Of a stretch of 64,000 bases of DNA, positions 195 to 11,052 are shown in pieces. Location: contig CALVXD010000001.1 in assembly GCA_944368815.1 (NCBI GenBank), positions 13,093 through 77,092 of the forward strand, in the 5' to 3' direction. Each line of letters opens with the position of its first letter. Within the stretch, counting starts at the first letter, position 1. The notes beneath the pieces were generated by a model. It was not told the origin of the DNA and ran no database searches. It worked only from the letters and a program-made list of their open reading frames with translations. A program made the translations under genes and the position numbers. The DNA comes from an uncultured Bacilli bacterium. Its GTDB lineage: Bacteria; Bacillota_I; Bacilli_A; RF39; UBA660.

Positions 195-3100
195 TTAAAA
201 TAAACTTAATTGATTTGTTTCAGACATATCATTGAAAAGTCCCATTATTTTCATTTTATCAATTAATGTTTGTGATACTCTACATCTTTTTTGGAAATCT
301 TCAATACTAATAAATGTAGATTTTTCTCTTTCATTAACAATTGCTTCTGCTACACTTTCACCAAGTCCATCTAATGCTCTAAATGGTATGTATAATCCTT
401 TACCATCTTCAGTTATTACGAAGTCTTTGGCATCTGATTTATCTATATCAATATTTTTAAAATAGAATCCTCTTGCACACATCTCTAAACATAGATATAA
501 AACTCCACAAGTATCTATTTCTTTTTTACTAGCAGTTTTATTAGAAATTTTTTCTTCTATTTCATCTATTTTATTTCTAATACCATTTTCTCCAAGTATC
601 ATAGATGATGGATCAAACTGATCGCATCTTATAGAAAAGTATGCTGCATAATAATATATTGGATGATGAACTTTAAACCAGGCAATTCTAAAAGCACTTG
701 TTACATACGCTGTTGCATGGGCTTTTGGGAACATGTATTTTATTTTTCTACATGACTCGATATACCATTCAGGAATTCCTGCTTCTCTCATTGTTTCTAC
801 ATGACCTTCCCAAGTTGCAGGATCTTTACTAGCTTTTCCTTTACGAACAAATTCCATTATTTTAAAGGCTTTCGCTGGTTTCATTCCCCATGCAATTAAG
901 TTAACCATAATGTCATCACGACACCCAATTACATTTTTAAATGGAACTTTAATTTCACCATTTTCATCAGGTGTACACAAATCTCTTGCATTCCCTAACC
1001 ATACGTCAGTACCATGGGATAGTCCTGATATTTTAATAAGTTCTGCAAATGTTGTTGGTTTAGTTTCTTCTAACATTCCAAGTAAGAATGATGTACCAAA
1101 TTCAGGAATTCCGAGTGTTCCAGTTGGACAATATTTTCTTCCATTTTTATCTGTAAGTCCTCTTAATCTATCTTTTTCTACTCCAAGAACTTCCGGGCCA
1201 CAGAATATCTTCATCGTATCTCTGTCTCCTAAGTCTATTTTAGTAACATCTATTCCTGATAAATCTTGAAGTTTTCTAAGTACAGTCGGATCATCGTGTC
1301 CTAGTATATCTAGTTTTAACAAATCCGCATCAATAGCATGGTAATCAAAGTGAGTAGTTCTCCACACACTTGTGGGATCATCCGCTGGATATTGGAATGG
1401 TGTAAAATCCCAGACATCTTTATATCCCGGAACTACTACTATTCCTCCAGGGTGTTGTCCTGTTGTTCTTTTAACTCCTGTACATCCCACTGATACTCTT
1501 TCTACTTCTGCTACTCTAGCACTTACTTTTAGTAACTTTTTCTTCTTTAAATCATCTTTACTAGGAACTGACAAGCCATAACTATTTGCTTCTATTTTAA
1601 GAACATTATGAGCTTGTTCTTCATAGAATCCTAAAACATAACCATATGCTGTTTTATCTGCAACTGTACCAATAGTCCCTGCCCTATATACATTATCTGT
1701 TCCAAATAATACTTTTGTATATTCATGAGCTGATGCTTGGTTATCTCCGCTAAAGTTAAGGTCAATATCAGGGACTTTATCAGCATTGAAACCTAAGAAA
1801 GTAGCAAACGGCATATCATTTCCTTCGTGTACCATTTTTGATTCACATTTTGGACACATTCTTTCTGGTAAATCAAAACCGCTAGCATAATTTTTAGATA
1901 AAGGATTACCCTTTTCATCATTAAAAATACTATATCCACAATTAGGGCAATAATAATGTGCTGGTAATCCATTACATTCTGTTATTCCCATCATATTGGC
2001 AACGAGAGATGAACCAACAGAACCACGTGATCCTACTAAGTATCCATCATCATTTGAGTGCTTAACTAACTTTTGGGCAATTAAGTAAATAACGTCAAAG
2101 CCTCCACCAATGATACCTCCTAATGATGCTTTAGCTTTTTCTATCGCAACTTCATCAGTTAAAGTATTATCTTCTCTTTGCATCTTTTCTTTAACTAAGT
2201 TAACTACCCCATCATATCCACTCATAATAACATCATGAAGTACACTAGGTAACATTTTATCTTTTTTATTTTCATCCAAGTCAGGATAATCTAAATTAAT
2301 CTTATCTTTTACAAGTCCTAAAATAGTATCACCATAAAATTCTTGAGCAATTCTCTCTTCAATCATCCTAGGAAGGGGATTACCATACATGCTATGTGCT
2401 TTAGTATAAACTAAATCACGACATGTCTCCTGTGAATGTTCAATAATTGGCGAATATGGTTTATCAGGATATTCTACTACTTCTATTTCACTAATCATAT
2501 CTAATATTTTATTAGGGTTAACTACTACTATTTCATTAATCAAGTCTTCATCTTCTAACCAAGAAAATTCTTCTTTCATTTCATTAGTAGTTCTTAAGAA
2601 TTGATTAGGTATATGACCACTTACAGATAATTTAGTGGGTTCATAATAACGGAAATCATCTACAAGAGAATATACTATTTTTTCATCTTTAGTTCTAAGT
2701 TCTATAATATTTAAAGATTGGAACTTTCTAAGAGCATCTTCTATTTTACTCTTCTTATATTCTTCTTTAGATTTTAATATTTCTTCTTCTTTATTATTTT
2801 TATCTATTTGATATAACTCTACTAAATTCATAAGAGTAATTGGAATATCTTTAACATTAGTTAAAGTGTAAATATATTTAAGTACCTTTACATCAATAGA
2901 AGTTAACTCTACTCCCTTAGTTTTTACATACTCTATTAGATTTTCTATATTTTCATTATTGACATTACCTTTAAGATTCCCTGACAAATATCTAGCAAGA
3001 GGATGTCTACCTTTACCAGGAACATTTTGATTTACAATAATTTCTCTATATAATACATCTTCTTTATTTATATTATGTACGTCTCCAGTTGCCACAATTA

Positions 3101-5882
3101 ATTTATTGCATTTTTTAGCACAATAAATTATTTTCTTTATACATTTTTTTAAGTGCTCTATATTATTTATATCGTGTCCTTTTAACAAATGGGAATAGTT
3201 TTCTATTGGTTGTACTTCAATATAATCATAAAACTCCATTGCCTTCATTAAGTCTTCTTCATTACGAGTTTCTGCTAAATAGAAAATTTCTCCATTAAGA
3301 CAAGCAGAACCTATAAGTAATCCTTCTCTGTTTTCTTCGATTAATTTTCTAGGTATTTTAGCATTTCTTACAATAAAGTTAGTATTTGCATAACTAATTA
3401 TTTTAAATAAATTTTTAAGTCCTACTTTATCTTTTGCTAAAAATGTAACATGCTTAGTATTATCATATAAATTAGCAATATGTTCTGTAATCGTTTTTCC
3501 AGGAATATTCTCATACATTTGTAAATAATTATCATGACACCAAGGATACTTCCATATATATTCCTTATTGTTGTATCCTATAAATGGATATCCCCTTTTT
3601 TCATCCTCTTCTATATTATTCGTACAAGGCTCGACATAATTTTTATAACTGCATAAATCATGTATATTTTCTAGTTTTTTAGGATCATTTTTAAATGAAA
3701 TTTCTTCTAGTAATTTCAAATCATTTAACTCACTAATTTTATTAATTCCTTCAATTTGTTTTAACATTTTAGCAAATATATAACCAGTATTTTCTGAGTC
3801 AACATCCGCACCATGGTGTTGTCCAACATATATTTTAATTTTAATGGTATTAAATTCATCAATATTTACTACTTCTTCATTTTCTGCTGGATGTAATTTT
3901 ATATCTTTTTCTATTACATTATTATCTTTTAAATTAATTATTAAATGACAAGTTTCTGTTTTACTAGCCTTACGAACTTTGTTTAAATAAGTTCCTTCTT
4001 CGGTAGTTTTTAATATAGATTCACCATCTACCTTTATATCTTCTAATTTATTTAGTAAATAATTATCTAATTTTACACTACTACTTGGTACTCCACTTGC
4101 ATTTTCTTCATCTTCTTCATCTGCTTCTCCGGTATTTATTCCGTAAAATTTACCTAACGCTTTTAAACTATGTTTCTTTAAGTCCCTATTTATTACTCTA
4201 GATAACATAAGTGTATCTATGATTGGATTTTCTAACTTACCTAAATCATATTTATAATAGGCCATATCTAACATATTTTTATCAAATCTTGCATTATGTG
4301 CTACTAAAGGTAAAGTACCAATCCATTCTTTAAATCTTTTTACAACATTTTCTTCATTGTCAGAATCTTTTACATCATCATCTGATATATCTGTAACTCT
4401 TGTTATTTCTTCATCAATATGATGACCAGGATTAATTAATTCATCAAAACGATCTACAACTTCTCCATTTTTTAATTTAACTGCACCAAGTTCAATCATT
4501 GAGTCTCCCAAACCTGGATTAAATCCTGTTGTTTCAGTATCGAATATTACGAATGTATTATTTTCGATTAATTCATCATTCGGATTAAAACATACATTTA
4601 AATATGATTCACACATATCTATTTCGCTACCATATGCTACTTTAAAATATTTTAAATTATCTTTTTCTTTTATAGCATTTTCAAGTTCTATATTTAATTC
4701 ATCTAAACCTTCTGTTTTACCTTCATTAGTAAGTGTTTCTATTTTACCTTTAATTTCTTCTATTTTAGCAGTTGTTGCTTTCTTTAATCCTTTATTATAA
4801 CTAGTAACTTCCCCGAAAACATGAGGAAAAGCTTGACAACAATCGTGATCAGTAATAGCGATACCAGGGTGTCCAAATTTAATTGCCTGTTTAACTAATT
4901 TTACTTCATCACATACTCCATCCATTTGACTCATCATTGTATGAGCATGTAATTCCACTCTTTTTTCTTTGGCATCATCTGCTCTTTTATTTTCTTCTTG
5001 TCCATCAATTGCAGTAATATCTTTAAATCTTGTATTGAATACTAATTCTTTTGCAAATTCATCTGTTACTACTTTTCCATAGAATCTATAGTACTTTCCT
5101 TCTTTTAATAAATCTTTAAGTCTTGCAAACTCATCTTCACTTTTAGTAAATATTTTTGCATACATACTATCAGTACCATCAGTAACTTTTAAAGTAAATA
5201 TTTTATATCCACTTTTAGATTCAAATATATCTATTCCAAATAATTTTATTTCAATATTTATATTATCTATTTCATTTTTAATGTCTTTTATTGAAACTAC
5301 ATCTTCACTTTTCTTTTCACGATAATTATTCTTAACTTCTTTTTTTTCTTCAAAAACATAAGTTTCATTTACAACTTTATCTTCTTCAATTTGTTTTAAT
5401 AATTCATCTTCCCCTGTATTATCCATTACTATATTTAATTTATAATAATACCCATATTTTCTAAGTCTATCATTAATTCGTTCTAATTCTTGTAGTAAAT
5501 AAGCTTTTTCTATTTTATTATATACTTTTATTTCAATGTTATCTTCATTAACTATTATTTCTCTATCCTTAAATATATTATATTTGCTACTACTTTTAAT
5601 TAAACTATCAATAATTAAATTAAAATATTCATTAAGATACTCGTTATCTTTATTTTTACTAATAATAGTTAAATCTATTTTGTCAACATTAAATGATTCT
5701 GATAATTTATTATTTAAATAAGTATATACATAACTAGGTATATTATTATCTACTATAATAACAAATTCCCATAATTTAGTTTTATCATATACTATTATTT
5801 TTTCTAATTCGCTGTTATCAAAATATTCCATATATTTATCTAAATTTATTTGTTTAAATAATTTTTCTAATTTACTACTCAT
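195..5882 (-). CDS. polC: DNA polymerase III PolC (Gram-positive type), unusually long at 1895 aa
   Basis: PHP motif VELHAHTMMSQMDG; DEDD exonuclease FVIFDTETTGFNP..VAHNARFDKNML; polymerase core GYLVGSRGSVGSS, CPNCG/CPKC zinc motif, KVPDIDLNFSG; C-terminal NQLSLF as in B. subtilis PolC. Promoter-like TGaTTATAAT and a GGTGG RBS lie upstream. Confidence 0.92.
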   Translation of the reverse strand: MSSKLEKLFKQINLDKYMEYFDNSELEKIIVYDKTKLWEFVIIVDNNIPSYVYTYLNNKLSESFNVDKIDLTIISKNKDNEYLNEYFNLIIDSLIKSSSKYNIFKDREIIVNEDNIEIKVYNKIEKAYLLQELERINDRLRKYGYYYKLNIVMDNTGEDELLKQIEEDKVVNETYVFEEKKEVKNNYREKKSEDVVSIKDIKNEIDNINIEIKLFGIDIFESKSGYKIFTLKVTDGTDSMYAKIFTKSEDEFARLKDLLKEGKYYRFYGKVVTDEFAKELVFNTRFKDITAIDGQEENKRADDAKEKRVELHAHTMMSQMDGVCDEVKLVKQAIKFGHPGIAITDHDCCQAFPHVFGEVTSYNKGLKKATTAKIEEIKGKIETLTNEGKTEGLDELNIELENAIKEKDNLKYFKVAYGSEIDMCESYLNVCFNPNDELIENNTFVIFDTETTGFNPGLGDSMIELGAVKLKNGEVVDRFDELINPGHHIDEEITRVTDISDDDVKDSDNEENVVKRFKEWIGTLPLVAHNARFDKNMLDMAYYKYDLGKLENPIIDTLMLSRVINRDLKKHSLKALGKFYGINTGEADEEDEENASGVPSSSVKLDNYLLNKLEDIKVDGESILKTTEEGTYLNKVRKASKTETCHLIINLKDNNVIEKDIKLHPAENEEVVNIDEFNTIKIKIYVGQHHGADVDSENTGYIFAKMLKQIEGINKISELNDLKLLEEISFKNDPKKLENIHDLCSYKNYVEPCTNNIEEDEKRGYPFIGYNNKEYIWKYPWCHDNYLQMYENIPGKTITEHIANLYDNTKHVTFLAKDKVGLKNLFKIISYANTNFIVRNAKIPRKLIEENREGLLIGSACLNGEIFYLAETRNEEDLMKAMEFYDYIEVQPIENYSHLLKGHDINNIEHLKKCIKKIIYCAKKCNKLIVATGDVHNINKEDVLYREIIVNQNVPGKGRHPLARYLSGNLKGNVNNENIENLIEYVKTKGVELTSIDVKVLKYIYTLTNVKDIPITLMNLVELYQIDKNNKEEEILKSKEEYKKSKIEDALRKFQSLNIIELRTKDEKIVYSLVDDFRYYEPTKLSVSGHIPNQFLRTTNEMKEEFSWLEDEDLINEIVVVNPNKILDMISEIEVVEYPDKPYSPIIEHSQETCRDLVYTKAHSMYGNPLPRMIEERIAQEFYGDTILGLVKDKINLDYPDLDENKKDKMLPSVLHDVIMSGYDGVVNLVKEKMQREDNTLTDEVAIEKAKASLGGIIGGGFDVIYLIAQKLVKHSNDDGYLVGSRGSVGSSLVANMMGITECNGLPAHYYCPNCGYSIFNDEKGNPLSKNYASGFDLPERMCPKCESKMVHEGNDMPFATFLGFNADKVPDIDLNFSGDNQASAHEYTKVLFGTDNVYRAGTIGTVADKTAYGYVLGFYEEQAHNVLKIEANSYGLSVPSKDDLKKKKLLKVSARVAEVERVSVGCTGVKRTTGQHPGGIVVVPGYKDVWDFTPFQYPADDPTSVWRTTHFDYHAIDADLLKLDILGHDDPTVLRKLQDLSGIDVTKIDLGDRDTMKIFCGPEVLGVEKDRLRGLTDKNGRKYCPTGTLGIPEFGTSFLLGMLEETKPTTFAELIKISGLSHGTDVWLGNARDLCTPDENGEIKVPFKNVIGCRDDIMVNLIAWGMKPAKAFKIMEFVRKGKASKDPATWEGHVETMREAGIPEWYIESCRKIKYMFPKAHATAYVTSAFRIAWFKVHHPIYYYAAYFSIRCDQFDPSSMILGENGIRNKIDEIEEKISNKTASKKEIDTCGVLYLCLEMCARGFYFKNIDIDKSDAKDFVITEDGKGLYIPFRALDGLGESVAEAIVNEREKSTFISIEDFQKRCRVSQTLIDKMKIMGLFNDMSETNQLSLF

Positions 5883-5956
5883 AAAACCACCATAAGATTA
5901 TTGTACCAAAAAAAAAGATTATAATAAAGATATTTTTACTTTATTATAATCAAATT

Positions 5957-6745
5957 TTATACTCCCATTGTATTTGTTTCAGGTAATGTTGAACCACCAT
6001 CAATTACAAATTCTGTACCTGTCATATAAGATGAATCATCACTTGCTAAAAAAGCCGCTAAATTACCAAGTTCATGGATAGTTCCCATTCTTTTCATTGG
6101 TATTCCTTGTTCTATTCCATGAATTACTGATAATGGATCTTCTTTATTAGTAAGCTTGGCCATATTATCTACCATTGGTGTTCTAATATATCCAGGAAGT
6201 ATTGCATTTACTCTTATATTATCATTTACATATTCCATTGCTAATGATTTTGTAAATCCAATTAATGCTGCTTTTGTAGTAGCATACGCAACTTCTCCAG
6301 TATCTGCTACCATTGGTCCTGTTACACTTGATAAATTAATAATAGAGCCTTTTCTATTCTTTTGCATATAAGGAATAACTGCTTTTGTTACATTCCATGT
6401 TCCTTTGATATTTATATCAAAGTGATAATCTCTTATTTCATCAGTTGTTTTTTCAAAAGTCTCCAAATAACATACACCAGCATTATTAACTAATATATCT
6501 ATTTTTCCATATCTTTCTGCTATTTTATTAATACAAAAATCAACTTTATCTTTTTCACGAATATCAACTTTATATCCGCAAACATCATGTCCTTTACTTG
6601 CTAAATCATTAATTACAGTTCTAAGTTCTTCTGAATAATCTAGTATCGCTACCTTTACACCACGAGATACAAATACATCTACTATTCCTCTACCATTACC
6701 TTTTGCTCCACCTGTTACTACCGCTACTTTCCCATCTAAATTCAT
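5957..6745 (-). CDS. SDR family oxidoreductase (3-oxoacyl-ACP reductase / glucose dehydrogenase-like)
   Basis: N-terminal Rossmann motif VAVVTGGAKGNGRG; NNAG; YxxxK region (YATTKAAL). Confidence 0.8.
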   Translation of the reverse strand: MNLDGKVAVVTGGAKGNGRGIVDVFVSRGVKVAILDYSEELRTVINDLASKGHDVCGYKVDIREKDKVDFCINKIAERYGKIDILVNNAGVCYLETFEKTTDEIRDYHFDINIKGTWNVTKAVIPYMQKNRKGSIINLSSVTGPMVADTGEVAYATTKAALIGFTKSLAMEYVNDNIRVNAILPGYIRTPMVDNMAKLTNKEDPLSVIHGIEQGIPMKRMGTIHELGNLAAFLASDDSSYMTGTEFVIDGGSTLPETNTMGV

Positions 6746-6749
6746 TGTA

Positions 6750-7367
6750 TCACCTTCCTTTTATTCTATCTTTATCTTCTACTAAAGCTTTTTGAAATTC
6801 CATTTCTAATAAAGTTTTTGTAAAAAAAGCCATTCTTATTCCCTCTAACATATTATTACTATCAACTTGAGACCAATCTAATTTATAATTAGGAATTCTT
6901 GTTTCTACCAATTCTCTTAAAAATTCTCTAATAGTTCTTCCATTGCCTTCTCTAAAAGGATGAACTTTTATTAAAGCACTATAAGTATTAGCCAAAAATC
7001 TAGCATAATCTTCAAAATAATGACATGTTTCTAATTCTTCATTCATTTCTTTAATAACAATTTCTAACTCTATATCAATATTTTTTACTGAAGTCACATA
7101 CAAATTGCCTTTTCCCATAAAAACTGTCCTATATTGTCCAGCAAATGGATAAATTTCTTCAAACAAATACTTATGAATATCACATAAATGTTTTTTATCA
7201 AAATTACCATTTATTGGTTCCTCATACAATTCAACTAATTTTTTAAAAACAATTTCAGATTCTTTGGTTTTTAATTCTTCATTATCCCTAATTCCAAATT
7301 TATTCTTTAAAACACCATCAGTTCCTGGAATTAAATATTCTTCCCATTTCTTATCTTCTTCTGTCAT
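6750..7367 (-). CDS. Fic family protein (AMPylation toxin domain), class I
   Basis: Canonical Fic active-site motif HPFREGNGRTIR (HxFx[D/E]GNGRxxR); 205 aa; its start overlaps an upstream small ORF. Confidence 0.85.
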   Translation of the reverse strand: MTEEDKKWEEYLIPGTDGVLKNKFGIRDNEELKTKESEIVFKKLVELYEEPINGNFDKKHLCDIHKYLFEEIYPFAGQYRTVFMGKGNLYVTSVKNIDIELEIVIKEMNEELETCHYFEDYARFLANTYSALIKVHPFREGNGRTIREFLRELVETRIPNYKLDWSQVDSNNMLEGIRMAFFTKTLLEMEFQKALVEDKDRIKGR

Positions 7368-7503
7368 TTACCAAAATTCTCCTTCGCACTGGTTTTTGAT
7401 GTTCTTGCCTTACTTCATCTATTTTTTTCTTACTAACTGTTAAATTTTCTAATGCTAAACTTGCAAGCACCTCTTCAATTATTTTATTAATATCTCTTTC
7501 CAT
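7351..7503 (-). CDS. Small Fic antitoxin (VbhA/anti-Fic-like), 50 aa, absent from the ORF track
   Basis: ATG at 7503, TAA at 7351-7353; translation MERDINKIIEEVLASLALENLTVSKKKIDEVRQEHQKPVRRRILVNDRRR. It contains SLALEN, matching the inhibitory helix motif [S/T]xxxE[G/N], and overlaps the Fic start by about 17 nt. Confidence 0.55.
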   Translation of the reverse strand: MERDINKIIEEVLASLALENLTVSKKKIDEVRQEHQKPVRRRILVNDRRR

Positions 7504-7518
7504 ACAACCACTTCTTTT

Positions 7519-9057
7519 CTACATGAAAGGTGCCAAAAATCTCAACACTCTTCCTATTGTTTTTTTCATAATATTATAGTCATCAACTTCTTTTTCTGTT
7601 ATTCTTATTGATTCATTAATTGTTTTATTATAATCCTCTTGAATTTCTTCAATAACCTTATTTTTATAAATATAACATGCACATTCAAAATGTAAATATA
7701 AACTTCTATAATCCAAATTAATAGTACCTACAACCGCCTTACAATTATCACTTATAAACATTTTAGCATGTGTAAATCCTCTCTTAAATTCATATATTTC
7801 TACTCCACTACTAATTAAATCTTTATAATAACTTCTACCTAAATAATAAACCATCTTTTTATCCGGTATATGCGGCATAATTATTCTTACTTTAATTCCT
7901 CTATTTGAAGCATATATAATAGAAGACAATAATTCATCATCTAATATTAGATAAGGAGTAATTATATCAACATATTTATTGGCAGTATTTAAAATATCCA
8001 TATATACTCTCTTACCAGTCTCGTATTCGTCTAATGGACTATCACCATAAGGAATTACATAACCATCATTATTTGATTTTTCATTAATATTATTAACATA
8101 TTTTTCATAATTATCTTCTTTTTTTTCATCTATATTCCACAGTTCTAAAAACATTACTACAAAACTATTAACAGAAGTTCCTTCTATTCTAATTGCCGTG
8201 TCTTTCCAATAACCATATTTTTCTTTTTTATTTATATATTCATCTGCTAAATTTATTCCTCCTGTATAACCAATTTTACCATCAATTATACAAATTTTTC
8301 TATGGTCTCTATTGTTTTGATGTAATGACAATTCTAATTTTACAGGAAAAAATGGTTTACATTTTATTCCAAACTTTTCTAATTCTTTTTCGTAATTATA
8401 TGGAAGAGTAATTAAAGAGCCTAATCCATCATACATTACTCTAATTTCCACACCTTCTTGAGATTTTTCTTTTAATATTTCTAAAATTGTATCCCACATA
8501 TATCCTTTTCCTATTATAAAATATTCAATAAAAATATATTTTTCAGCACTTTTTAAATCATTTAATAAGGATTTAAATTTTTCTTCACCATTTTCAAAAT
8601 ATTTTATTTTACTACCATTGTAAACTGGATAACCACAAGTACTATATAAGTATTTAGATAAATTACTAAAACTTATATCATTTTTTTTAATGTCTTGATA
8701 TAAATTAGCATCTTGAACTAAATATTTTTGAATATTTTTTCGAATTTTTTTCAATTTTTTCGAAATATATTTTAATGAAATTTGGAAATGACAAAATATA
8801 AAAGCTGTGACTCCTATTACAGGAAATATTAAAATTGGTATTATCCAAGCAATTTTGTATGATGGATTTGTCTTGGTATTTATTAAATATAGTACTAATA
8901 CAATGGATAATATACTAGTACCTCCTACTATCCAAACAATATATTTATAGAAAAATAAGAAAGATATATATACAACTAATATTTGAGCAATTAATAATAA
9001 AATTGCTAAAGTTAATCTTGAAAAAACTATTTTAAATAATCTATTTACTATTTTCAT
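7519..9057 (-). CDS. cls: Cardiolipin synthase
   Basis: Two N-terminal TM helices and two HKD motifs (HRKICIIDG...GGINL and HAKMFISDN...GTINLD). Confidence 0.85.
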   Translation of the reverse strand: MKIVNRLFKIVFSRLTLAILLLIAQILVVYISFLFFYKYIVWIVGGTSILSIVLVLYLINTKTNPSYKIAWIIPILIFPVIGVTAFIFCHFQISLKYISKKLKKIRKNIQKYLVQDANLYQDIKKNDISFSNLSKYLYSTCGYPVYNGSKIKYFENGEEKFKSLLNDLKSAEKYIFIEYFIIGKGYMWDTILEILKEKSQEGVEIRVMYDGLGSLITLPYNYEKELEKFGIKCKPFFPVKLELSLHQNNRDHRKICIIDGKIGYTGGINLADEYINKKEKYGYWKDTAIRIEGTSVNSFVVMFLELWNIDEKKEDNYEKYVNNINEKSNNDGYVIPYGDSPLDEYETGKRVYMDILNTANKYVDIITPYLILDDELLSSIIYASNRGIKVRIIMPHIPDKKMVYYLGRSYYKDLISSGVEIYEFKRGFTHAKMFISDNCKAVVGTINLDYRSLYLHFECACYIYKNKVIEEIQEDYNKTINESIRITEKEVDDYNIMKKTIGRVLRFLAPFM

Positions 9058-9063
9058 GTTACT

Positions 9064-9567
9064 TTATCTTTTTCTTATCCTATTTTTTTGTTTATCAAAG
9101 TAAAGATCCAATAAATCTTTAGGAGTAGGAGTTTCCATAGTTTCTTGAAAACTTTGCCAATACAATAGCCCATCTACTATTTTCAAATCATCTACTATAA
9201 TTATTCGATAATCACTTATTTGATTTACAAATTTATATATTATCTGTTTTAATTCTTCAGAAATATTATCAGGAAAATAAAATATACCTGTTTTGACACT
9301 TTTACCATTCATATCTTTGCTAGTTGTATTACAAAATACCACATGTCCTAATTCCACAAAATAATAACTTATTGTAGGAGGTGTATGTTTTACATTTAAT
9401 TTTTGAAATGCATCAATATCGGGAAAATATTTTCTACCATATTCCAATATAGTAGCAGAGTGTAATAAATTACTATTTATATTTCCTATCATATCTATTT
9501 TTCCAAATTTATCTTTTCTTTTTTCATCATTATCTCCATATATTACCGCAGCAATATAATTATCCAT
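9064..9567 (-). CDS. Hypothetical protein
   Basis: 167-aa ORF tightly packed between cls and murE; no recognisable motif. Confidence 0.4.
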   Translation of the reverse strand: MDNYIAAVIYGDNDEKRKDKFGKIDMIGNINSNLLHSATILEYGRKYFPDIDAFQKLNVKHTPPTISYYFVELGHVVFCNTTSKDMNGKSVKTGIFYFPDNISEELKQIIYKFVNQISDYRIIIVDDLKIVDGLLYWQSFQETMETPTPKDLLDLYFDKQKNRIRKR

Positions 9568-9582
9568 ATGTATCTACCTCTT

Positions 9583-11052
9583 TTATTTATTATATTTTAG
9601 TTCTTCCAATATTTCTTTTATGATAACCCTTTCATCAAATGGTTTTCTAATACCATTTATTTCTTGATAATCTTCATGCCCTTTACCTAAAAGTAATATA
9701 ATATCTCCTTCTTCAGCATTTACAATACTATATTTTATTGCTTCTTTTCTATCCGGTATAGTTATATACTTTCCATTAGTTTTATGCATACCTATTAATA
9801 TATCGTTTATTATATCATTAACATCTTCGTATCTAGAATTATCTGCAGTTATTATTGAAAAATCTGCTAATCTACCTGATACTTCTCCCATTTCATATCT
9901 TCTATCTTTACTTCTATTACCACCGCATCCAAAAATTGTTACTATACGTTTAGGATTATATTCTCTAATTGTTGTTAATATACTTTCTGTTGATACACCA
10001 TTATGAGCATAATCTATAAGTAAATTAAATTTATCAGAAATTGGAACCGGTTCTACTCTTCCTTTTACAGCTATAGTTGATAATGCTCTTTTCATTGAAT
10101 CTATTGAACATCCTATTAAAAATGTTGTTAACATAGCACACATTGCATTATATGCTGAAAATGTTCCAGGAGTATTAATTTTAAAAGTATCAGAAATAAC
10201 TCCTCCAGTTGTCATACTAATACCTATAATACCTTTTTCTCTTAAAAGTTCTACTTTATCACAATATAAATTAGCTTTTTTATCATATCCAAAAGTATTA
10301 ATATCACAAGTACAGCCATTAATCATTTTATTATAATTACTATCATCTATATTAAATATTCCATGAATAGATTGTTTAAATAGTAATGATTTACATTCAA
10401 TATATTCTTCCATTGATGCATGTTCTCCATCACCAATATGATCATGTGTTAAATTTGTAAATACACCATAATCAAAAGTTATTCCATCTACTCTTCCTAA
10501 CTTTAATGCTTGTGATGATACCTCCATTACAGCATATTCAATGTTATTATCAACCATTTCTTTTAGATATTTATGAATATCATAAGATTCAGGTGTAGTA
10601 TTTACTAAATCATAATGTTTATCATTTATAAATACACCCATAGTACCTATGACACCAACTGATTTATTATCTTCTTCCAAAATTCTTTTAATCATCCATG
10701 TAGTAGTAGTTTTTCCTTTTGTTCCTGTTATTCCAATCATTTTTAATTTTTTAGAAGGATTATCAAATAAATTAGATGATAATAATGCTAAACTCCTTCT
10801 AGTATCATTTAACTTAATAACAGTTACATCATTATCTAATTGTACATCTTTTTCTACAAAAATAACTTTTGCTCCATTTTTTATTGCATCATCAATATAC
10901 TTATGACCATCCATATTATGACCTACTAATGCAATAAAAGCATCATTTTCTTTAACGTTTTTAGAATTGTAACAAATGTCATTTATTTCTACATCTATAT
11001 TACCCTTTACAACTTCATAATTAATATTTTTTAACACATCTTTTAACAACAT
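9583..11052 (-). CDS. murE: UDP-N-acetylmuramoyl-L-alanyl-D-glutamate--2,6-diaminopimelate (or lysine) ligase MurE
   Basis: Mur ligase P-loop GITGTKGKTTTT; MurE-like N-terminus (MLLKDVLKNI...), DYAHN and other C-terminal domain features. Confidence 0.88.
   Translation of the reverse strand: MLLKDVLKNINYEVVKGNIDVEINDICYNSKNVKENDAFIALVGHNMDGHKYIDDAIKNGAKVIFVEKDVQLDNDVTVIKLNDTRRSLALLSSNLFDNPSKKLKMIGITGTKGKTTTTWMIKRILEEDNKSVGVIGTMGVFINDKHYDLVNTTPESYDIHKYLKEMVDNNIEYAVMEVSSQALKLGRVDGITFDYGVFTNLTHDHIGDGEHASMEEYIECKSLLFKQSIHGIFNIDDSNYNKMINGCTCDINTFGYDKKANLYCDKVELLREKGIIGISMTTGGVISDTFKINTPGTFSAYNAMCAMLTTFLIGCSIDSMKRALSTIAVKGRVEPVPISDKFNLLIDYAHNGVSTESILTTIREYNPKRIVTIFGCGGNRSKDRRYEMGEVSGRLADFSIITADNSRYEDVNDIINDILIGMHKTNGKYITIPDRKEAIKYSIVNAEEGDIILLLGKGHEDYQEINGIRKPFDERVIIKEILEELKYNK

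Follow-up and report, generated by a model that had tools for sequence, protein, structure and literature searches.

Two overlapping genes lie at positions 6750 to 7503 on the minus strand of the window, the term used here for the whole 64,000-nucleotide stretch of DNA that was analysed. The downstream gene (6750..7367, from the ORF listing and from reading of the sequence) encodes a ficT-like Fic protein of 205 aa that carries, as the earlier note had reported, the canonical catalytic motif HPFREGNGRTIR at residues 136-147 (6927..6962, minus strand), including His136, Arg144 (R1) and Arg147 (R2). The upstream gene (7351..7503, minus strand) is a ficA-like antitoxin ORF of 50 aa with the peptide sequence MERDINKIIEEVLASLALENLTVSKKKIDEVRQEHQKPVRRRILVNDRRR. 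It appears in an ORF listing with a minimum of 30 aa and falls below the 60-aa default minimum of the ORF lister, which explains its absence from the ORF track that the earlier note had used. Residues 15-20 of the peptide (7444..7461, minus strand) read SLALEN (Ser15...Glu19-Asn20), a regular-expression match to the inhibitory-helix motif [S/T]xxxE[G/N]. In all six public contigs that encode an identical Fic, the stretch of 152 nt that holds this ORF has been left without a gene call.

The reading frames of the two genes overlap by 17 nt (7351..7367, minus strand), so that the antitoxin 3' end (…NDRRR*, read as AAT GAC AGA AGA AGA TAA) shares its nucleotides with the Fic 5' end (MTEEDK…, read as ATG ACA GAA GAA GAT AAG). 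The overlap is likewise 17 nt in two relatives (L087 and L089) and is 29 nt in a third (L088). A putative Shine-Dalgarno-like AAGGAG (7379..7384, minus strand) lies 11 nt 5' of the Fic ATG, within antitoxin codons Arg40-Arg42, and an equivalent AAGGAA or AAGGAG is seen in L087-L089; it would presumably act as the Fic ribosome-binding site. The C-terminal part of the antitoxin is thus a short basic tail that is dual-coded with the Shine-Dalgarno sequence and start codon of Fic, and its basic composition may therefore partly reflect constraints on the nucleotides. The pair sits in a housekeeping region between a gene for a cardiolipin-synthase-like (cls-like) PLD protein upstream (7519-9057) and an SDR gene downstream (5957-6745), the placement given in the earlier note. 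Beyond the SDR gene comes polC (195-5882; 1895 aa), and between a Mur ligase gene and cls there is a 167-aa ORF (9064-9567) that has no Pfam match and occupies the same place in related contigs. The cls-like gene, the SDR gene, polC and the 167-aa ORF are all on the minus strand.

The Fic protein matches Pfam PF02661 with 51.6 bits (gathering cut-off 24; E 1.8e-13). Among the named NCBIfam models VbhT ranks first (1e-29), followed by E. coli Fic (NF007672, full-length; 3e-20), but both matches score under the equivalog cut-offs, and because of this the window Fic is classed, by its sequence scores, as a relative rather than an orthologue of VbhT and E. coli Fic. A sequence search of the PDB likewise places VbhT at the top (3e-21), followed by the Bartonella Beps, EfFic, Fic-1, EcFicT and NmFic. 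The AlphaFold2 (AF2) model, built from an alignment of 28 homologues, has a pLDDT of 93 and the all-helical Fic topology. Its best Foldseek match is the VbhT–VbhA complex (3shg_A/3zcb_A, TM 0.84-0.93), with the Bep–BiaA, EcFicT–EcFicA and Fic-1–AntF complexes among the further top matches; the best structural matches are thus class I proteins whose crystal structures include a trans-acting antitoxin. The window Fic has the whole AMP-transferase signature HxFx(D/E)GNGRxxR; across the 28 aligned sequences H136-N142 and R144 do not vary, and G143 and R147 hardly do. Since every residue of the signature is present, the window Fic is predicted to be catalytically competent for AMPylation.

Fic appears to have no inhibitory helix of its own, a point on which the earlier note had made the pairing depend. 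Such a helix in the Fic polypeptide itself would have placed the protein in class II or III. The strict [ST]xxxE[GN] motif was sought in all 205 aa and is absent, and by the ranges of the PDB alignments the C-terminus of Fic stops short of the position of the C-terminal inhibitory helix of NmFic. A class III reading by way of NNMLEG (Fic residues 171-176) was considered and rejected: the first residue of this segment is the wrong one, its Glu is not conserved in the 28-sequence alignment, and the segment pairs with a regular helix of VbhT (…QEMTRA…). The earlier assignment to the class I type stood up, the nearest proteins by both sequence and fold being VbhT, EcFicT and Fic-1 and the small ORF being positionally conserved.

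Whether the 50-aa ORF is a gene at all bears directly on this assignment. It could in principle be an untranslated chance frame in AT-rich DNA, leaving Fic under a different control or under none; the gene calls of six contigs omit it, the peptide has no direct database match, and the reverse-strand frame is open in 3 of 4 relatives, as is typical of DNA that is AT-rich and K/E-rich. Across the window, 693 stop-to-stop ORFs reach 30 aa or more, and together they contain the strict [ST]xxxE[GN] motif 25 times (~0.0005 per residue), a rate at which ~0.02 motifs are expected in an ORF of 50 aa, and the presence of SLALEN in this ORF exceeds chance. A hidden Markov model (HMM) was built from the small ORFs that directly precede Fic relatives in other genomes, leaving out the window peptide. 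Among the 693 window ORFs, the 50-aa ORF is its only significant match (24 bits, E 8e-7); the next-best ORF reaches 3 bits (E 2.6), and the 23 other ORFs with the bare motif do not exceed that score. The peptide is identical on five of the six contigs with identical Fic and differs by K32Q on the remaining one (L085). In the three relatives with 79-87% Fic identity (L087, L088 and L089), the frame stays open at this place, conservation is strong over the N-terminal 25 residues, and residues 4-19 are nearly unchanged (DI[ND]KI[IV][ET]EVLASLA[LIM]E). In the first 32 antitoxin codons, nucleotide differences between pairs are distributed as 51/19/70 at codon positions 1/2/3, which is a coding pattern. 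Together with a clade of 23 similarly sized protein clusters, recovered with a profile of syntenic upstream peptides, and the profile-profile match to VbhA-like peptides described below, these observations argue against a chance frame, which is considered very improbable.

The relationship of the peptide to the VbhA family becomes apparent at the level of profiles. Searched alone against Pfam, NCBIfam, PADLOC and the sequences in the PDB, the antitoxin yields chance-level matches only, and the Pfam VbhA model (PF18495) does not match it even at E<=1. A word-indexed search of 5.8 billion proteins finds only the peptide itself, and an exhaustive phmmer search of 1.84 billion representatives finds two relatives. 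The connection comes from synteny at 80 genome loci encoding Fic relatives of 30-53% identity, in nearly all of which a small ORF ends at the Fic start, with the strict motif in 50 of the 80. With the HMM of syntenic peptides, a VbhA-like ORF is detected upstream of Fic at 69 of the 77 usable genome loci (a partly circular figure, as 37 of those loci supplied the HMM) and at 19 of the 68 viral loci; downstream of Fic, the same HMM finds one at 1 genome locus and 2 viral loci. PF18495 is matched by 24 of 46 syntenic upstream peptides from other lineages, and the joint profile of these peptides matches the crystallised VbhA (E 2e-10) as well as BiaA. When the clade of the window antitoxin is compared with the remaining VbhA-like peptides using hhalign, the match has a probability of 95.6% (E 1.3e-8) and is limited to 34 N-terminal columns (residues ~2-35), which correspond to the inhibitory-helix half. 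SLALEN is aligned column for column with the ASxxxEG of the syntenic peptides and is in register with ASQRLEG of VbhA.

The AF2 monomer of the antitoxin (pLDDT 71) has one helix at residues 2-18, with SLALEN at its C-terminal end, a second at 25-36, and an unstructured tail at 37-50. Foldseek finds nothing significant for this monomer in the PDB (BiaA, 5eu0_B, appears at E = 7), and the C-terminal helices of VbhA, together with their conserved Gly, are absent from the window peptide according to both the alignment and the AF2 monomer. Since the profile matches are confined to the N-terminal half and the C-terminal helices are missing, the peptide is, on this evidence, VbhA-like only in its inhibitory-helix half. 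The earlier description of a VbhA-type antitoxin consequently holds as profile-level homology for the N-terminal ~34 residues but does not extend to the remainder, and the profile search that had been proposed against the VbhA families gave a divided answer, with no Pfam VbhA match for the peptide alone but a clear signal from the syntenic HMM and from hhalign.

The clade to which the window antitoxin belongs, recovered with a profile of syntenic upstream peptides, comprises 23 protein clusters of 46-69 aa, for which the position upstream of Fic was checked directly in the members taken from loci only. The hosts are gut 'uncultured Bacilli' and Candidatus Onthousia. None of the 23 members has a precomputed Pfam domain, and the sole name given to them is 'hypothetical protein'. 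The C-terminus of the clade is a basic KLVL(K/R)(K/R) tail in which Leu-Val is nearly invariant. The window peptide has KPVRRR here (residues 38-40, nt 7384-7393), with Pro38 in place of the nearly invariant Leu and Arg40 in place of a mostly conserved Leu, and KPVRRR is also found on the other contigs with identical Fic.

Variation in the clade also reaches the inhibitory motif. In the sister lineages, which hold most of the clade members, Asp occupies the position of the inhibitory Glu (e.g., SLRIDR, NLQIDR, SFEMDA), followed by R, A, K, C or E in place of G/N. Such Asp-form antitoxins lie upstream of Fic at loci L001-L005 (e.g., L002, 2790-2975; L004, 2814-2987) and include proteins P0126-P0144, and the Fic proteins next to them keep a full HPFREGNGR(S/A)IR. 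Glu is limited, within the clade, to the subclade of the window (SLALEN, SLAMEN, SLAMED, SLAIED and SLALEK). These peptides might be regarded as an unnamed 'mini-FicA' clade of gut Bacilli that retains the inhibitory helix, has the basic tail where VbhA has its C-terminal helices, and controls class I Fic in a way of its own, a suggestion that is rated as quite unlikely. It would apply if Asp does not block ATP as Glu does; the control might then consist, for example, in partial inhibition or in a shifted balance of AMPylase and deAMPylase activity, and SLALEN of the window, with its Glu, would be the canonical end of the spectrum of the clade. Another relative, P0123 (238 aa), came from the phmmer search; over its first 36 residues it shares 67% identity with the window antitoxin (with SLAMED), but rather than stopping ahead of a Fic gene it runs on into the C-terminal part of DUF3885 (Pfam, 7e-27). 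To judge from its sequence, it looks like a rearranged remnant of an antitoxin.

Taken together, the gene layout, the motifs, the fold, the homology and the conserved synteny make it roughly 85% probable that the pair is a FicT/FicA-type (VbhT/VbhA-type) class I Fic module whose antitoxin acts in trans through an inhibitory helix. [quoted passage not shown] Gyrase and topoisomerase IV are inactivated by FicT toxins (PMC5675462). For the window pair, binding, inhibition, target, toxicity and translational coupling are inferred as follows. The 50-aa upstream protein would supply the inhibitory helix to Fic in trans, with Ser15 and Glu19 predicted, by homology with VbhA Ser20/Glu24 and AntF Ser24/Glu28, to contact Fic Arg147. 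This contact would force ATP into a non-productive pose, keeping Fic off while both proteins are bound. The two proteins are probably made from one transcript, and the 17-nt overlap and the placement of the presumed Fic ribosome-binding site within antitoxin codons would tie synthesis of the toxin to that of the antitoxin. Fic that is free of antitoxin may AMPylate GyrB and ParE and thereby arrest DNA topology and replication, by analogy with the characterised FicT toxins, and the antitoxin–Fic complex might reverse this AMPylation, as the Fic-1–AntF complex does.

The prototype of class I Fic toxin-antitoxin (TA) modules, VbhT/VbhA of Bartonella schoenbuchensis (PDB 3SHG, 3ZC7, 3ZCB), shares with the window pair the Fic fold (at the TM scores given above and about 29% identity), the full HxFx(D/E)GNGRxxR, an antitoxin gene directly upstream, the [S/T]xxxE[G/N] helix and, at the level of profiles, a homologous N-terminal half of the antitoxin. 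The two systems differ in that VbhT is encoded on a plasmid and carries a BID domain at its C-terminus, whereas the window Fic is a stand-alone chromosomal protein of 205 aa; and in that VbhA has 62 aa and three helices (PMC5033356), whereas the window antitoxin has 50 aa, two predicted helices and an unstructured basic tail and, unlike VbhA, escapes PF18495. EcFicT/EcFicA (Fic/YhfG of E. coli; PDB 5JFF, 5JFZ) resembles the window pair in having a stand-alone Fic of ~200 aa (Foldseek TM about 0.8-0.9 to the window Fic) and a small upstream antitoxin. The C-terminal part of EcFicA is reduced compared with VbhA, indicating that this region varies within the family (PMC5033356). EcFicT, however, has a degenerate motif (Leu for R1) and no detectable AMPylation, whereas the window Fic keeps both Arg144 and Arg147. 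Fic-1/AntF of Pseudomonas bijieensis (PDB 8WT0) likewise pairs a class I Fic that stands alone with an inhibitory-helix protein encoded upstream, and the Ser and Glu of its antitoxin contact R2; the window Fic matches Fic-1 with TM 0.80/0.90 but only about 25% identity. For Fic-1/AntF and the FicT proteins of Yersinia and Pseudomonas, the AMPylation of GyrB (and ParE), the toxicity and the deAMPylation by the complex are experimental results (PMC13327609, PMC5675462), whereas the corresponding statements about the window pair are made by analogy.

Biologically, the module is nothing new in principle, but it offers a minimal inhibitor of 50 residues, and this form, along with its Asp-for-Glu sisters, could be used to probe how much FicA inhibition and deAMPylation need. 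It also has value for annotation. Neither gene callers nor Pfam pick up the antitoxin, so that without it the Fic gene would be taken for an orphan encoding a constitutively active AMPylase, or for a 'defence candidate' that consists of a single gene. Recognition of the short antitoxin clade makes correct class I FicTA calls possible in uncultured low-GC gut Bacilli.

The genomic setting of the pair speaks to how it might be used by the cell. On all contigs with 79-100% Fic identity the genes follow one another as Mur ligase–167-aa ORF–cls–antitoxin–Fic–SDR–polC, the part from cls to polC being a co-directional array, and gaps of 15 nt and 4 nt separate the module from the genes on either side. 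A scan for promoters and terminators found no terminator-like sites, and promoter-like sites are no commoner than in shuffled sequences, so that a promoter of its own is not assignable. The GC content of the module (26-28%) is the same as that of its flanks, and a reading as a horizontal island was rejected on the grounds of this absence of a GC anomaly and the conserved synteny. Neither association with mobile elements nor variable presence was seen among the close contigs. A metagenome scan with Cls for cls-SDR adjacency lacking the module returned one near-identical and one distant contig only, which carries no information on this point. Because the locus is a stably syntenic array among housekeeping genes with no compositional anomaly, the label 'addiction' module attached to it in the earlier note is unsupported. 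Over a longer time scale the picture is different: cls, SDR, polC (first 400 aa) or the 167-aa ORF was found as a neighbour at none of the 80 distant genome loci. Given these other neighbours and the synteny in the close lineage, the module has, by comparison of the loci, moved in the distant past and is now stably resident in the lineage of the window.

EcFicTA, which is apparently non-toxic, is chromosomal, vertically inherited and found in a housekeeping context (PMC5033356), and the window locus, in its stable synteny, housekeeping setting and unremarkable composition, resembles it more than it does a mobile addiction module. Instead of a TA addiction module, the window pair may accordingly be a non-lethal, vertically inherited regulatory pair, in which a housekeeping target is reversibly AMPylated and deAMPylated to an extent set by the antitoxin level, with expression coupled to that of the cls–SDR–polC genes. 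The unchanging gene order, the short intergenic gaps with neither terminator-like sites nor an enrichment of promoter-like sites, the flank-like GC content and the precedent of EcFicTA are in agreement with such a role. On the other hand, the window Fic keeps R1, which EcFicT does not (PMC5033356), and so looks competent for AMPylation; the module has moved over longer time scales; and relatives are common on prophage-like contigs. A purely regulatory pair is thus a possibility with the odds against it. By analogy, regulation like that proposed for EcFicTA or reversible control of gyrase like that of Fic-1–AntF would appear as plausible for this class I module as a classic TA function.

The matches of the Fic protein to phage-related sequences and models raise a further possibility. 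The window Fic matches a model (PDLC04838) of PADLOC PDC-S04, a candidate single-gene family of phage defence, from end to end (E 2e-50), and relatives of Fic are common on viral or prophage-like contigs. The pair might therefore act in abortive infection, with phage infection depleting a labile antitoxin and the freed Fic stopping the cell. PDC-S04 is, however, an unverified candidate for which one test in the native host gave no defence activity (PMC12409345), and its model includes no antitoxin. Relatives on viral contigs reach at most 41% identity, and the neighbours of the window locus are cls, SDR, PolC and Mur ligase genes, outside any defence island. An anti-phage role is consequently regarded as unlikely, and the class I module with a trans-acting antitoxin remains the preferred reading of the locus.

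Several minor features were observed in the surrounding DNA. The TAG stop codon of cls is followed in frame by five codons (KRSGC) and then by the ATG of the antitoxin (window 7504-7521), and a single stop codon therefore separates Cls from the antitoxin. In relative L087 (2347-2517), the public gene call reads through this stop and yields a Cls protein of 568 aa. The Fic product of the same relative (P0008) has Gln8 where the DNA carries TAG in place of the TGG of a conserved Trp8, which could result from the use of a TAG-sense code by the caller, from a nonsense mutation or from a sequencing error in L087. PolC proteins are typically about 1430-1460 aa long. The window PolC is longer by roughly 450 aa, and most of the segment that separates its exonuclease from its polymerase core (residues 583-1227) has no listed Pfam domain, which suggests a large insertion in the predicted protein. 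The minus strand carries 40 of the 47 window ORFs of at least 150 aa, and GC content is about 18-30% over the profiled stretch 4000-10899; this strand bias and low GC content are consistent with an arm of a low-GC Bacilli chromosome. The nearest relatives in the genome collections are metagenome-assembled genomes of gut 'uncultured Bacilli'.
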